The position numbers were made by a program. A stretch of DNA of 21,128 nucleotides from a bacterium (GTDB taxonomy: Bacteria; Hydrothermota; 32-111), in assembly GCA_050239825.1 (NCBI GenBank), contig JBFXGO010000036.1, forward strand, positions 1 to 21,128. Direction: 5' to 3'. Within the stretch, counting starts at the first letter, position 1, and each line of letters starts with the position of its first letter. Shown one piece after another: positions 1 through 15,000 of the stretch.

Positions 1-3000
1 CGCCGCTTAATCAAGATGGGATGTTGTGGGGACACACCGTAGGAATGTCCCCAAACCACTTGATGGGCGTCTGCGCGGAGCGTCCTCGCCGACTTGTAGC
101 TTTCACTTTCAATAAGTTATTTAATTGTTTAAATCTTCACAAAGCATTGGCTGGGGTGTAATGGAGTCTGCGACTCCATGATAGACGCCTCGGGTTGCAC
201 CAGAACTTTGTGAAGATTATTGTAAAGACAAAATCTTACTCAGCAGTATATTGAATGTTAACTGTACTGCAATTTTTCTTCGGAACTGTAAAGACAAGTC
301 ATTTATTCAACTCCCCGTATTATGCGCAAGGCACATGGCTCACGGCTGATTTGGGGGGCTGCTGGCGGGCTTAGCGTCGGCTCGCACACTCCGCTTCGCC
401 GCTTAATCAAGATGGGTTAGCATAGCAAGGGGAGAACCACTTGATGGGCGTCTGCGCGGAGCGTCCTCGCCGACTTGTAGCTTACACTCTCAATAAGTTA
501 TTTAATTGCCTGTTGCAGTGGGGACACACCGAAGGAATGTCCCCACATTGGCGAGGGTGTAATGGACGCGAGCGTCCATGATAGAAAAAACGGGTTGTAC
601 CAGAAGTTTTAGAAGATTACTGAAAAGACAAAATCTTACTCAGCAGTATATTGAGTGTTAACTGTACTGCAATTTTTCTTCGGAACTGTAAAGCCAAGTC
701 ATTTTCTCAACTCCCCGTATTAAGCTCAAGGCACAAGGCACACGGCTCACGGCTGACTTGAGGGGCTGCTGGCGGGCTTAGCGTCGGCTCACACACTCCG
801 CTTCGCCGCTTAATCAAGATGGGAAAGCGTAGCAAGGGGACGACCACTTGATGGGCGTCTGCGCGGAGCGTCCTCGCCGACTTGAAGCTTACACTTTCAA
901 TAAGAATTGACTTGCTTGTCCTCGGAAAAACATTGAATAGCAGTGCGGAGATGCACTGGAATTTTTCCTCGGAACTGTAAAGACAAGTCATTTACTCAGC
1001 TCCCCGTATTGTGTTTTGACTTTTACAATCTTTTACCTTTTACCTTTTACCTTTCTTTACTTAGTATCATTTGCCTTTATCCTTTTACACTTTTACATTC
1101 TTTCTATATCTATTATATTGACTTTACTTTAAATATAATATAAAATAACTAGTTATTAAATTAAGGAGTTTTTATGTACGATAAACTTGTTTTTGAATTG
1201 TCTGATTCAAATAAGAATACGGTATCAATCCCTGAAAACAACTACAACATCAAATTGGAATCCTGCATATCTTCAAAAAACAGAAGAGAAAACGATGCTG
1301 ATATTCCAACAGTGAGCGAGATTGACATATTGCGCCACTTTGTGCTTCTATCCTATAAGAATCATCACCTTCAGAAGGGTTTCTATCCTTTAGGTTCATG
1401 CACAATGAAATATAATCCTGTTATAAATGAGGATATATCATCAAACCCGAAGGTGACAAAAATTCATCCCTATCAGGATATTGAGGATGTACAGGGAATG
1501 CTTAAAATAATGCATGAGCTTCAGTATATGATTCTTGAAATTACAGGATTCGATGCCATGTCACTTCAGCCTGTCGCCGGCGCGCATGGCGAATTTGCAG
1601 GCATGATGATAATGAGCGATTATTTCAAAAGTAAAAATGAGAAGCGCACAAAGATTCTTATTCCGGATTCCGCTCATGGAACAAATCCTGCATCCTGCAC
1701 TTTGGCCGGATTCAAATCAATTCAGATAAAATCAAATGCAAACGGTGAAATAGACCTTGAAGACCTTGATAAAAACATGGATTCCGAAACTGCCGGCATA
1801 ATGATAACAAATCCAAACACACTCGGCATATTTGAAACGCAGATAGAAAAAATCCGGGAAATAGTACATTCGAGGGGCGGTTTGATATACATGGACGGAG
1901 CAAATCTTAATGCGATAATGGGTATAGTGAAACCCGGAGAAATAGGATACGACATTCTTCACATAAATCTACATAAGACATTTTCCACTCCTCACGGAGG
2001 AGGAGGACCCGGAGCAGGCGGAGTCTGCGTCGTGAAGAAACTTTCCGATTTTCTTCCTCCCTTTATAGTGAAAGAAAACAAAAACAGGTATTCTCTTGAT
2101 TATCCAGTGAAATCAATAGGAGCCCTGCACTCATTCTACGGAAATGTCAACATAATGGTTCGTGCATGGGCATATATAAAAATTATGGGAAACGAGGGCA
2201 TAAAGGAAGCAACAAGGATGGCGATTGTAAACGCCAATTACATAAAGTCAAAACTGCGCGGAGTATACGACCTTCCCTATGACAACCCGACTCTCCATGA
2301 AGCAGTGTTCAGCGGAAGAATGCATAAAAAAGAGTATGGTGTCTCAACTCTTGATATAGCGAAACGGCTTCTTGATTACGGATTTCATGCTCCGACGATT
2401 TATTTCCCACTCATAGTATCGGAGGCGATAATGATTGAACCCACTGAAACAGAGACCAAGGAGACTTTAGATATTTTCATAGAGGCGATGAAGAAGATAA
2501 GTGAGGAGGCAAAGACAAATCCGGAACTTCTAAGGAATGCCCCTTCATCAACTCCTGTAACCCGTCTCGATGACATAAAGGCAATGAAGGATATGAATGT
2601 AAACTGGTACGGAGAGAAGCATGCTTGACAATTTCACTCCTGTCACATATACAGAGATAACCGAAGAGAGAAAGAAAGAGATTTTGCTGAAAATTGCAAA
2701 AAATATTGTGGCGCGCGGTTTAACTACTCCGGCTATAATGTTTCTCGAATCTGTCAAGCCGATGAATTTTGTGGGAGCACAGGTTATGATATTTTTTGAA
2801 CCGATTATACTGACTTTTTTTAATATAAAAGAGTACAGGGAAGCGGCGCTGATGTTTGAGGAGAGAGGCACTGTGGAGAAACTTATAAATGAAATAGAAA
2901 ATGCGGAAAACGAAACAAAGAAAGAAAAAATTAAGGATAAAGAGAAATCTGTTAAGGAGGATAAATGAAAGAAAAGAACCTAATTACAAGGATTCTCGCA

Positions 3001-12000: not shown

Positions 12001-15000
12001 TTTTCATTATATTCGGTAACATTGCATTTTTTGTTGAAAAGAACAGAAAGAAAAAGGAAGGAGGCAATTAATGGCAACTACAATAGGCATTTGGATAGCC
12101 GCTGGTCTAACTTTATTTATATACTCTTTCCTCTATAAAGACAATCCGTTTTATAAATTCGCAGAGCATTTGTATGTGGGTATTACGGCCGGCTATTGGC
12201 TGATTTATACTTGGGCTTACACAATTCAGCCGATGCTTCTTGACCCTATAATAAAAAATAAGGAATTCATTCTTATCATTCCGGCTTTTTTCGGAATAAT
12301 TATGCTCACGAGATGGTTCCCGGCAATTTCTTGGCTTTCAAGATGGTCGATTGCTTTTACAGTGGGAATTGGAGCGGGACTTGGAGTGACGGGGTCCATA
12401 CAGGGTTTCATTCTTCCTCAGCTTAAATCAACCATTCTTCCAATTACAGGATTTGATTTTGCCACTTTCAACAATCTGCTTATAATATTCGGAGTGATTA
12501 CAACTCTTGTGTATTTTTATTTTTCAAAAGATCACAAAGGATTCCTTGGACACGGAGCAAAAATCGGAATGACCTTCATAATGATAGCATTCGGCGCATC
12601 CTTCGGATATACTGTTATGGCTCGTATCTCACTCCTGATAGGAAGAATCTACTTTTTAATGTTTGACTGGCTGGGGTCTATCTTTTAGGAAATGAAAGCG
12701 TACTATGTGCCCTTTGGCAGGTATGATGTTTATACCAACATGGCAATAGACGAATATCTTTATAAAAATGTGAGCGAGACGGTTTTGAGATTCTATGAAT
12801 TCTCAGAACCGTCCGTTACAATAGGGTATAACCAGAAATACGGAAGCAGATTTAATCTGGATTTTGTCAGCGAGAAAAGGATTCCCATTACAAGAAGACT
12901 GACAGGAGGAAGGGCTGTTTTTCACGACGGAGACCTCACATATTCCATATCTGCCGATTTTAGTTGCTTTGCGCACGGTTCATCCGGTCTGGATATGGTT
13001 TCCAGATATAAAAAAATATCGGATGTTTTTTTGAAGGGATTCAAATCTATGGGGCTGGATGTTTCTGTCTTTGAGGGAAAATCCCTGAAGCCATTTTCAT
13101 CTAACTGCTTTGATTCTTCTTCAATACATGAATTGACAATAAACGGAAATAAAATACTTGGAAGCGCGCAGGTCTTTTCCGAGAAGGGATTCATGCAGCA
13201 GGGGACAATCTTGGTAAAAAACGGAGTTTTTAGACCTGCCGAACTTTATGGAGAAAACTTCCAAAAGAATATTGAAATTATAACAAGTATGGTTTATAAT
13301 ATTAAAGATATGGCAAAAGAGTTGTATGACTCGTTTATGGGTATGTTTGATTATGAATGGGAAGATTTGCAGGTAAGCATTACAGACTGTGAAGTCGTGA
13401 AGCTTATCGATTTTTATAAAAATTCAGAATGGATAAAGAGGGTGTAATGGATTTAACAGCCAACCTTGAAGTCTTCTCGGGCGCCGAACTTATAAATCTG
13501 ATTTCTCAGGGAAAGAAGACCGGGGTGCTTTACTTTGACATTTCAGGAGAGAAGGGTGAGCTTTGCTTTATAGAAGGAGCTCCGGTTCATGCATCTTTTA
13601 AATCATTATTCGGAGAGGAAGCTCTATACAATATTATGATTGAGAAGCAGGGGAGCGTTACCTATAAAGACAAAATTGCTGTAAAAGACCATACCATACA
13701 AAACAGCAGCGCATCAGAGCTTTTAAGCCAGATAGAGAAAAGAAAAGTTGAATTTGACGACCTTGCCAAAAAGCTCCCTCCATTTGAAGCAATACTCGAA
13801 AAGAGGGCTGACGGATTGGGTGAAAATATAAGTTTAAGGAAATCTGATTGGGCAGTCATCAGAATAGTAGATGGGAAGAAGAATATAAAGACTATAATCA
13901 AAGACAGCAAACTCCCGCTCTTTGAAGTATATAAGACTCTTGAGTATCTTCTCTCAAAGGGAATGATCTTTGACAGGTCACAATCAGAGAAACTCAGGCA
14001 GGAGCTTCTTGTATCAATGAACAATATTGTTGAAGCATTTTCCATAAAGGGCGCAAACACAAAGGATTGGGCTCTCTCTCTGATTGATATGGTTATGAGC
14101 AATGGCTATGAAACAATCGGCGGAATGATAAAATATACAAGCGACTCTCTGACGGCTGATGATGCGATACTGAAAGTTTTAGACGGCGATAAGGTTGCAA
14201 AGATTAAACAGTTTCTCTACAAAGCGGCTTATGAAAAAGCAACAGGCGACCTTGGACCGATGATAGCAAAGAAAAAGTATAAAGAGTTAATGCAAAAAGA
14301 AGGGGTAAGTGATGGGACTTTCTGAATTAGTTGAAAAGTTGAAATCCCGTTTCCTTATTATCGATGGGGTGAGGATAAGCAAGGAGGACGGTGAAACTTT
14401 GGAGACTGTCGGAGACGGCAACCCGAAGATGAATGAAATCGGTGCATTTCTCGGTTCGGCCGGTGAAGTCATCTTCAACCGACTCCAATTGCAGGCTCCG
14501 GAGTATGCAATATTCAATGTTGATGATATGAACATTGTGATTGTAAATGAAAACACAAGCTTCACAGTTCTGCGGGTAAATGGGTCATCGGCAGGAATAT
14601 ATGAAGAATTTATTACCGCATCGGCTAAAACCGAAGAAACACCTGTTGAAATTCAGGAGGAGAAGGAAGAGGCGCCTCAATTGATTGAAACAGATGAACT
14701 CTCCTCATTCGCAGATTCAATTCAGGAGAACAAACTCGGCGAAATAGAAAGAAAACTTTTATCAGCCAAAATCATACAACTGAATTACCTTGTTGAGGAG
14801 TTTTCAAAGGGAGGTAGCACTGAAAAGTGGAATAGTTCGGTTTCAGCCATGATATCAAATATGGCGGAGCTGAAAGCGGCTCTGACAGTGACCAATAAAG
14901 TTTCGATTAATGATATAGTCTCGGTTGAAATAACCAGAGAGGAGATACAGGCAAAGACAAAGACGCTGATTGACGGTATCTGCAAAAAAGCCGTTGAAGA

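Follow-up and report, generated by a model that had tools for sequence, protein, structure and literature searches.

The window, the whole stretch of 21,128 nucleotides that was analysed, carries eleven + strand open reading frames (ORFs) at positions 2621-12688, with intergenic spacings of −8 to +14 bases. These ORFs represent seven gene types, four of which (A, B, C and D) are duplicated: the small protein S; M, a long ASKHA protein resembling GlmL; W, which combines barrel-sandwich, swivel and KOW domains; and two membrane modules with the order A-B-C-D. This packing confirms the seven-type operon with a duplicated module described in the initial annotation. The genes of the operon and those on either side are listed below.

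1174..2628, + strand: gcvPB, glycine dehydrogenase subunit 2 (NF003346, 696 bits against a cut-off of 441)
2621..2968, + strand: S, short protein (115 aa) with a single hydrophobic segment, assigned to no family
2965..4758, + strand: M, 597-aa long-form GlmL/MutL-family ASKHA-fold protein (PF13941, E 1e-127)
4769..5890, + strand: W, 373-aa partner of M (AF2 model, VIA matches)
5905..7110, + strand: A1, with a signal peptide, an FN3-like outer domain, a TM segment, a predicted cytoplasmic DUF6754 domain and a TM segment (PF20539, E 3e-116)
7119..7796, + strand: B1, polytopic membrane protein, ~6 TM segments, N terminus predicted inside (hydropathy, loop charges)
7793..8659, + strand: C1, with a TM segment, a predicted extracytoplasmic Rossmann-like domain and a TM segment (AF2 pLDDT 96.7)
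8661..9266, + strand: D1, polytopic membrane protein, N terminus predicted outside (loop charges)
9275..10576, + strand: A2, second A subunit, GTG start (PF20539, E 2e-111)
10583..11224, + strand: B2 (43% identity to B1)
11235..12071, + strand: C2, ATG at 11235 with an upstream TTG at 11202 in the ORF scan (37% identity to C1)
12071..12688, + strand: D2 (57% identity to D1)
12692..13447, + strand: lipoate-protein-ligase-family catalytic domain (PF21948, E 1e-30)

Between modules 1 and 2, global identity was 40% for A, 43% for B, 37% for C and 57% for D. The gcvPB gene overlaps S by 8 bases and is an operon neighbour that the system does not need; the gcvT-H-PA genes of this genome lie on a separate contig. 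The lipoate-protein-ligase-family gene is a recurring 3′ neighbour, present in 5 of 80 W loci. Both A1 and A2 are full members of DUF6754 (PF20539; 387 and 372 bits), a family that is catalogued only, and no paper naming it was found in the literature searched. No family has been assigned to B, C, D, W, S or E. No Pfam or NCBIfam model reached its cut-off for S, W, B, C or D, as had been claimed for B, C and D. The literature searched also contained no description of the system, and its reading as an undescribed conserved membrane machine holds.

M scored 427 bits against the Pfam MutL model PF13941 (gathering cut-off 27), with homology over residues 10-482, and is thus a member of that family. 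It shares the ASKHA phosphate and adenosine motifs with GlmL/MutL (NF040745, TIGR01319) and Or-4 (NF040744). In contrast to these proteins, M has a conserved C-terminal extension of ~110 residues beyond the GlmL models and falls below all three curated NCBIfam cut-offs (NF040745, 229.6 against 475; NF040744, 213.2 against 600; TIGR01319, 175.8 against 204). The phosphate-1, phosphate-2 and adenosine motifs occupy residues 12-21, 286-295 and 420-428. D14, G16 and K21 of phosphate-1 were invariant in 44/44 M homologues, as was the adenosine motif; D288 of phosphate-2 was kept in 33, the remaining 11 being archaeal loci with Gly. M was also the most conserved part of the system (53-89% identity across phyla) and is the presumed ATPase. 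GlmL and Or-4 are accessory proteins of B12 enzymes, and an excerpt of PMC4682846 describes MutL/GlmL as a chaperone for glutamate mutase reactivation. We rejected a role of M as a B12-mutase reactivase, since the long M lies under the GlmL/Or-4 cut-offs and neither glutamate mutase E (PF06368) nor lysine/ornithine aminomutase (PF09043) was found in this genome (99% complete). In the Bacillota genome G155 a short homologue adjoins an aminomutase gene, and the long M forms adjoin W. The annotation of long "GlmL/MutL" genes in these genomes would change as well, as they are not B12-mutase helpers.

The barrel-sandwich, swivel and KOW make-up assigned earlier to W was confirmed by the fold of its AF2 model (pLDDT 87), in which a barrel-sandwich hybrid (~51-123) is followed by a swivel domain (~152-297) and a KOW/SH3 domain (~308-373). 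Structural matches in VIA included Enzyme I (Z 9.1), KOW (Z 8.7), RraA (Z 8.6) and NqrA (Z 7.7), and identity to archaeal copies was ~50%. Among 82 W sequences no His column reached 70%, which argues against a PTS-type phosphohistidine carrier. In carrier domains the lipoyl-lysine sits at the hairpin tip. The hairpin of W is FFGLF-like, with K97 in 63/82 sequences, which argues against a lipoyl or biotinyl carrier; the match to PF00364 (Biotin_lipoyl) was weak (13 bits, cut-off 22). The resemblance to NqrA/RnfC is limited to the barrel-sandwich part of W, and the lack of any Cys column at ≥70% in B or D argues against an Rnf/Nqr-type complex. S is a possible adaptor.

For C, the AF2 model (pLDDT 96.7) agreed with the TM-Rossmann-TM fold proposed before, and the best VIA match was MTH777 (1kjn; Z 10.1, rmsd 3.3, 140 aligned). 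The outer domain of C matched generic Rossmann folds rather than a known binding protein (one PBP scored Z 8.2, level with many unrelated Rossmann folds), which counts against an importer. FN3 matches were found in the outer domain of A, the mean K+R immediately beyond its first TM segment was 4.7, and both termini of C are basic. Loop charges and C-D fusions support opposite orientations of B and D: the two fusions (P0356, P0386) contain one additional linker TM segment, as would be required if C ended inside and D began outside. A1 and A2 are 58% identical in the predicted cytoplasmic domain and 24% in the outer domain. Within genomes, identity was highest for the inner domain of A (48, 41 and 58%) and low for the outer domain of C (31, 32 and 34%); C1, the most divergent part among paralogues, is a candidate substrate-recognition subunit. 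If the system were an inverted-repeat transporter, A and C, and likewise B and D, would be homologous halves; comparison of the soluble domains of A and C by hhalign gave Prob 10.8 and E 0.003 (reversed control, 0.35), nothing was found for B against D, and a PDB sequence search with B1 gave no match. C328 of A is conserved, as are His residues in B, C and D.

Conservation of the A-B-C-D order was borne out in the loci examined, as B-C-D followed A in 93 of 103 A matches (fetched sets partly overlapping); 8 others lay near a locus end and 2 were extra A genes. In the 80 GTDB loci around W we found M in 56 (directly upstream in 55), a module gene in 25 and a gcvP gene in 12, which upholds the linkage reported earlier (47, 23 and 13 of 79). 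S was present in 32 of these loci and is located after D in several archaeal ones. Natural M-W fusions also exist (L140, L141). The M-bearing system occurs in both bacteria and archaea, and D alone has 2955 representatives at E ≤ 0.001. Copy number can be high: G155 contains 12 copies of A and 4 of the long M, and the maximum of 15 A copies was found in Bathyarchaeia.

The initial annotation had guessed at a peptide importer because Opp, POT and OPT were missing from one genome. We confirmed that OppB-type permeases, POT and OPT have no match in this genome, in which two SBP_bac_5 domains occur, one joined to a chemoreceptor and the other to TonB_C. Among 151 WOR-3 genomes, DUF6754 was present in 135, M in 134 and POT above cut-off in none. 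In the WOR-3 genus g17, however, DUF6754 and M were absent (0/15 genomes each), as was W (0/5), and an OppB/YejB-type permease was found in 14/15 genomes versus 5/136 other WOR-3. The search query was taken from g17, and the one g17 miss is a 70% complete genome; PF19300 was found in 6/15 versus 5/136. The g17 Opp locus has the order ilvE, two or three SBP5 genes, oppB, C, D, F. Thus, A, M and W were lost together with the gain of an Opp operon, although a Fisher p value overstates this association because the swap is a single evolutionary event. Zixibacteria had DUF6754 in 111/111 genomes and OppB in 3/111, and for Cloacimonadota the numbers were 114 and 3 of 121. Other results count against replacement: the seven Cloacimonadota genomes without DUF6754 had no OppB match, and the four of these examined had no POT or OPT. 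Bathyarchaeia showed no exclusion (Opp in 32/44 with DUF6754 versus 56/87 without, p 0.43), and genomes G153, G154 and G155 carry both systems. Moreover, the Opp family also transports nickel and other solutes, which counts against the peptide reading.

We also counted Peptidase Pfam matches in the two nearest genes on each side of modules. In Bathyarchaeia, where the loci include orthologues, the count was 12/75 versus 2/119 in controls (Fisher p 3e-4), or 10/74 (p 1.4e-3) after removal of a signal peptidase and a split gene. In G155 it was 7/48 versus 6/127 (p 0.047). One locus (L158) encodes on one strand a sigma-54 activator, M24, ABCD, M20, a racemase, PrpD and M28; another (L153) encodes DUF885, ABCD, an amidohydrolase, proline racemase and dehydrogenase subunits. 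None of the 20 flanking enzymes checked in G155 and Bathyarchaeia had a clear signal peptide by hydropathy. Against peptide import, peptidase Pfams occurred in only 4/109 neighbours of WOR-3 modules, where many envelope genes were found (e.g. Wza, Wzi, glycosyltransferases and T9SS cargo). TonB-dependent receptors or exbBD-tonB, which adjoin modules in several diderm loci, speak for an importer.

The g17 swap, the Opp-poor phyla and the flanking peptidases lend comparative support to the earlier guess, and we consider it somewhat better than an even bet that the operon encodes a multi-subunit inner-membrane importer that takes up peptides, or amides resembling them, and is powered by an ATPase unit that the modules share in the cytoplasm. 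One A-B-C-D set would form one membrane unit, whose path would be made up of B and D, oppositely oriented, together with the TM pairs of A and C. The Rossmann-like domain of C, predicted outside and variable between paralogues, would probably select cargo, and the conserved DUF6754 domain of A, predicted inside, is where M-W probably docks, for which S would act as an adaptor; between 2 and 15 modules would share one or a few M-W pairs. Once imported, peptides would be cut by the co-encoded cytoplasmic peptidases and enter amino-acid fermentation by glycine cleavage, proline/hydroxyproline oxidation, and 2-oxoacid and aldehyde ferredoxin oxidoreductases. More tentatively, and at somewhat less than even confidence, the system may represent a superfamily of its own among primary active transporters, with an actin/Hsp70-fold ATPase as its power source where others use an ABC or P-type ATPase. 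M-W would dock on numerous exchangeable A-B-C-D modules, in which the two Rossmann domains point to opposite faces of the membrane; the system may be the main route of peptide uptake in WOR-3, Zixibacteria and Cloacimonadota, expanded in some Bathyarchaeia and Bacillota. The operon most likely encodes an unrecognised peptide-import route of protein-eating microbes; confirmation would extend the few known classes of ATP-driven transporters by one. A gap would be accounted for as well, as these three anaerobic phyla are nearly devoid of Opp (WOR-3 also of POT) and keep the system in 89-100% of genomes. The lack of the phosphate-2 Asp in all 11 archaeal M proteins counts against an ATP-driven importer.

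That same lack would fit a gradient-driven or facilitated ABCD carrier in which M-W would gate or regulate the inner domain of A or serve it as a chaperone in the manner of GlmL, as would the chaperone role of MutL/GlmL (excerpt of PMC4682846) and the GntR-HTH fusions of a second M type (L136-L138). We consider this unlikely given that M was lost along with the modules in g17 and that it is the most conserved part, with invariant phosphate-1 and adenosine motifs. Alternatively, the modules could be a family of importers for small nitrogenous compounds in general (amides and free or N-acylated amino acids), with cargo set per module and peptides not the main one. Common neighbours also include amidohydrolases, amidase, creatininase, aminotransferases and gcv genes, up to 15 divergent modules occur per genome, and a broad neighbour class, widened post hoc, gave 13/48 versus 6/127 and 16/75 versus 5/119. 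Cytoplasmic exopeptidases (M24, M19, M20, M42, S9, M14) adjoin modules, however, so bonded peptides must enter or these enzymes would be useless; together with the gain of an Opp-family replacement in g17, this makes the alternative rather unlikely.

A machine for export or for building the cell envelope (polysaccharide, T9SS-related or TonB-coupled) is quite unlikely, because the module occurs in monoderm Bacillota and archaea, without an outer membrane or the FN3 arm, a whole diderm genus (g17) lost the system, and envelope neighbours vary between lineages. In its favour are the Wza/SLBB, Wzi, YfhO, PMT and T9SS-cargo neighbours in WOR-3, a PorV-like gene in 16/80 W loci, DUF4388 genes with exbB-exbD-exbD-tonB downstream here and in three other loci (L033, L041, L050), and near-universal retention across three phyla. 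Very unlikely is a membrane enzyme or group translocation system, in which M would phosphorylate or activate a substrate (kinase, hydantoinase/oxoprolinase-like) and W would swing as a carrier of phospho- or lipoyl groups: the Enzyme I phosphohistidine region and lipoyl-like folds among the best matches of W, weak Hydant_A matches of M and the conserved Cys and His of the membrane subunits point that way, but the absent His column and the hydrophobic hairpin tip of W do not. Finally, five loci (L090, L093, L104, L126, L128) have the operon gcvT-H-PA-PB-E-S-M-W-ABCD, L115 has it with a 2.6-kb gap, lplA comes next in three of these loci, and the operon contains no lpd gene, consistent with a glycine cleavage partner that re-oxidises or energises lipoyl-H protein. 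We regard this role as extremely unlikely, as a gene resembling Lpd lies elsewhere in the genome (381 bits, cut-off 409), gcvPB is kept without the system in 3/4 g17 genomes, gcvP is confined to 12/80 W loci, and redox-cofactor motifs are lacking.

The proposed importer shares its putative role and peptidase neighbours with the Opp/Dpp/Yej ABC importers (PepT family), which likewise have four parts in the membrane or periplasm and two in the cytoplasm that energise them, and Opp appears where the new system was lost (g17). It differs from them in its ASKHA-fold energiser and in subunits without the ABC ATPase, BPD_transp permease or SBP fold: the 11 proteins had no Pfam/NCBIfam match to P-loop ABC ATPases, BPD_transp or SBP_bac_5 at E ≤ 0.1, nor any to POT (PF00854) or OPT (PF03169). 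Solute importers are not known to run on ASKHA-fold ATPases. The diol/glycerol dehydratase reactivase DdrAB combines an ASKHA ATPase with a swivel domain and acts on a Rossmann-like partner, as M-W is proposed to do; it is not known to have a membrane part, and DdrA was absent from the best 50 structural matches of W. Group II ECF transporters offer an analogy in that many divergent membrane modules, encoded apart, draw on a single energising unit, although their ATPases are of the ABC type, single S components take the place of four-gene modules, and no sequence relation to the system was detected. The size of the seven-gene set allows direct testing in a laboratory strain.

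The genome that carries this operon is 2.1 Mb in size and 99% complete, and its close relatives are named WOR-3. The initial annotation had described a seven-gene membrane system with a duplicated four-gene module, and this description was borne out. Eleven plus-strand genes, with intergenic gaps of −8 to +14 bases, encode S (a small protein), M (a long ASKHA protein of the GlmL/MutL family), W (a barrel-sandwich, swivel and KOW protein) and two copies of a four-gene membrane module, A-B-C-D.

2621-12688, + strand: operon, in the order S (115 aa), M (597 aa), W (373 aa), A1, B1, C1, D1, A2, B2, C2, D2
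1-1013: non-coding repeat of about 400 bp with palindromic parts, present in tandem about 2.5 times
13444-18760: DUF4388 gene, four unknown genes (two soluble, two small with three TM helices), then exbB-exbD-exbD-tonB
18819-19070, − strand: rpsT
19819-20505, − strand: transposase-like HTH fragment

The operon is directly preceded by gcvPB and followed by a lipoate-ligase domain and the DUF4388-to-tonB cluster. Among the operon proteins, only M (PF13941) and A (DUF6754) passed a Pfam cut-off. The two modules are 40% (A), 43% (B), 37% (C) and 57% (D) identical, and no further copy was found in this genome. The DUF4388 gene and the next four genes also lie 3′ of ABCD modules in WOR-3 families far removed from this one (L033, L041, L050); a possible role of the cluster is to energise the outer membrane or to set polarity. 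One unit of the REP- or MITE-like 400-bp repeat gave 194 blastn matches on 33 of the 67 contigs, often in arrays.

Gene order within the module was well conserved in the loci examined: B, C and D followed A in 93 of 103 A matches, eight of the others lay near a locus end and two were extra A genes. We also examined the surroundings of W at 80 GTDB loci, which come from numerous bacterial phyla, Bathyarchaeia and other archaea. These contained M (56 loci), a module gene (25), S (32), gene E (15) and gcvP (12), and DUF6754 was present in all 10 genomes picked from them. Genome counts for DUF6754 were 135 of 151 in WOR-3, 114 of 121 in Cloacimonadota, 111 of 111 in Zixibacteria and 44 of 131 in Bathyarchaeia, against none in 14 well-known control genomes; the D profile matched 2955 representatives at 50% clustering. 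A plasmid search with A and W gave no match, and no cultured host was found among the named matches. Profile comparison matched no subunit to a characterised transporter, and neither did fold comparison for W and subunit C. A literature search, outside which most subscription journals lay, found no description of the system; DUF6754 and PF13941 went unmentioned, and the peptide-transport papers found were general ones. The system is real and, as a system, categorically new.

The probable function is peptide import. A nitrogenous solute of some kind is quite likely to be imported, irrespective of how this is energised; the best specific reading, a peptide importer whose ABCD modules are driven by M-W with ATP, is one that we favour by somewhat better than an even chance. 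Subunit C would capture the peptide, assisted in diderms by the FN3 arm of A and by TonB-dependent receptors, which often adjoin the modules there. The peptide would then pass the membrane through B and D together with the A and C helices, while M-W would dock on the inner domain of A and ATP would power the cycle. Cytoplasmic peptidases would free amino acids for glycine cleavage and related routes.

Loop charges in 88 to 109 sequences placed the DUF6754 domain of A and the N terminus of B inside, and the domain of C and the N terminus of D outside. This putative sidedness requires a single extra helix in C-D fusions, and the two natural fusions each have exactly one extra linker helix. The subunit C model (pLDDT 96.7) is TM-Rossmann-TM; its best structural match was MTH777 (Z 10.1), followed by many generic Rossmann folds, and Foldseek returned no specific match. 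In the ESM Atlas, subunit C led to unnamed clusters only and an archaeal D to no usable named match, while PDB sequence searches gave no significant match to M, W, B, C or D and FN3 only for A. The reading of A-B-C-D as a duplicated two-gene module lacks support at the sequence level, since A and C showed only a hint of homology (Prob 10.8, E 0.003; reversed control 0.35) and profile comparison of B and D showed none. Among paralogues of one genome, the inner domain of A was the most conserved part (48% in G155, a Bacillota genome, 41% in G338 and 58% in the window genome), and the outer domain of C was 31, 32 and 34% identical, respectively; D paralogues in G338 were as low (31%). This pattern fits a shared energiser that would dock on A and a choice of cargo outside, and proves neither. 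In the D homologues P0121-P0149, what is predicted to be the outer loop contains inserted EF-hand or helix-hairpin-helix domains.

M contains all three ASKHA motifs (phosphate-1, phosphate-2 and adenosine). In 44 sequences D14, G16 and K21 were invariant; the 11 archaeal sequences have Gly in place of D288, which the other 33 retain. MutL/GlmL is a chaperone for glutamate mutase reactivation according to a figure legend (PMC4682846). This role does not fit M here, and we rejected M as a B12-mutase reactivase because it scored under all three NCBIfam GlmL/Or-4 cut-offs and a search of its genome found no glutamate mutase E and no lysine/ornithine aminomutase. The W model (pLDDT 87) has three parts, of which the barrel-sandwich resembles NqrA/RnfC (Z 7.7, rmsd 2.1, 64 aligned) and the swivel domain resembles Enzyme I (Z 9.1, rmsd 2.9, 108 aligned) and RraA (Z 8.6), all middling values; the third is KOW. 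Foldseek gave no specific match, and DdrA was absent from the best 50 structural matches listed. A phospho- or lipoyl-carrier role for W was rejected since 82 W sequences had neither a conserved His in the swivel domain nor an invariant Lys in the hairpin. Natural M-W fusions occur at two loci (L140, L141).

Loss of the system was examined in WOR-3, where 15 of the 16 DUF6754-free genomes belong to one genus, g17. M was absent from all 15 as well, and W from all five searched, in a search without a positive control but with a profile that detected W elsewhere. The other five genomes of the same family retain A and M. An OppB/YejB-type permease was found in 14 of the 15 g17 genomes versus 5 of 136 other WOR-3 (6 of 15 versus 5 of 136 with the independent model PF19300), where the loss and the Opp gain count as one event. 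The g17 locus reads:

ilvE, two or three binding proteins, oppB, C, D, F

POT exceeded its cut-off in none of the 151 WOR-3 genomes. The window genome has two SBP_bac_5 domains, one fused to a chemoreceptor and the other to TonB_C, and no permease lies beside either gene. The chemoreceptor fusion (L131:6250-9636, contig C31) lies within a chemotaxis cluster, and the fusion to a C-terminal TonB domain is at L132:6294-8402 (contig C20); SBP matches unaccompanied by Opp permeases are also widespread in WOR-3, in open frames about as long as these two (roughly 1100 and 700 aa). OppB was also rare in Zixibacteria (3/111) and Cloacimonadota (3/121). Strict mutual exclusion with Opp was rejected, as 32 of 44 Bathyarchaeia genomes with the system have Opp versus 56 of 87 without it. 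The seven DUF6754-free Cloacimonadota genomes gave no OppB match, and four that were searched had neither POT nor OPT; M was absent from three of these and retained in one. Six small Cloacimonadota genomes (1.5-1.6 Mb; G162, G165, G168, G177, G183, G224) have neither DUF6754 nor OppB, and in the three searched further M, POT and OPT were absent as well.

G155 carries four long M genes and 12 A genes, all of the latter accompanied by B, C and D. Counting the two nearest genes per side of each module, 7 of 48 neighbours had a Peptidase Pfam versus 6 of 127 control genes from 20 evenly spaced regions (p 0.047), three of the six control peptidases being FtsH, Lon and ClpP. The seven peptidase neighbours (M81, M20 twice, S9, C39, M14 and M24) were spread over 5 of the 12 loci. 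Widening the class to amidohydrolase, amidase and DUF885, a choice made after data inspection and leaving out one creatininase of uncertain rank, gave 13 of 48 (p 9e-5). The count was repeated with 20 Bathyarchaeia module loci, which were chosen by the size of their contigs and come from seven genomes that carry 4-15 copies. Here 12 of 75 neighbours, at 8 of the 20 loci, had a Peptidase Pfam versus 2 of 119 controls (10 of 74, p 1.4e-3, minus a signal peptidase and a split M42), with several loci orthologous and controls from five of the seven genomes. Further neighbours were 2-oxoacid and aldehyde ferredoxin oxidoreductases and an aminotransferase, which are enzymes of archaeal peptide fermentation. 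No clear signal peptide was seen by hydropathy in 20 module-adjacent hydrolases checked, and two M16 proteins of one WOR-3 locus do show signal peptides. WOR-3 provided counterevidence, however: peptidases made up only 4 of 109 neighbours at 18 loci, and many neighbours were envelope genes.

The tie to glycine cleavage is an operon-level association. The idea that the system replaces a missing L protein of glycine cleavage was rejected because an Lpd-like gene is present on contig C16 of the same genome and three of four g17 genomes without the system retain gcvPB.

Gene E (two TM helices and a small soluble domain, no family) lies upstream of S or M in its 15 W loci and is unlinked in the window genome (L142:7740-8147, contig C41). 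A 260-aa secreted, C-terminally anchored, family-less protein is encoded between M and W at L082, L083, L088, L089, L097, L098, L100, L106 and L113, usually with tol-pal-type genes downstream. At three loci a GntR helix-turn-helix is fused to a second M type that is followed by a shorter W (L136:10104-12218, L137:264-2423, L138:3004-5178), and the L136 fusion is directly upstream of two ABCD modules. By analogy, reminiscent of ROK repressors, a possible role for these fusions is that of an ASKHA-fold transcription regulator.
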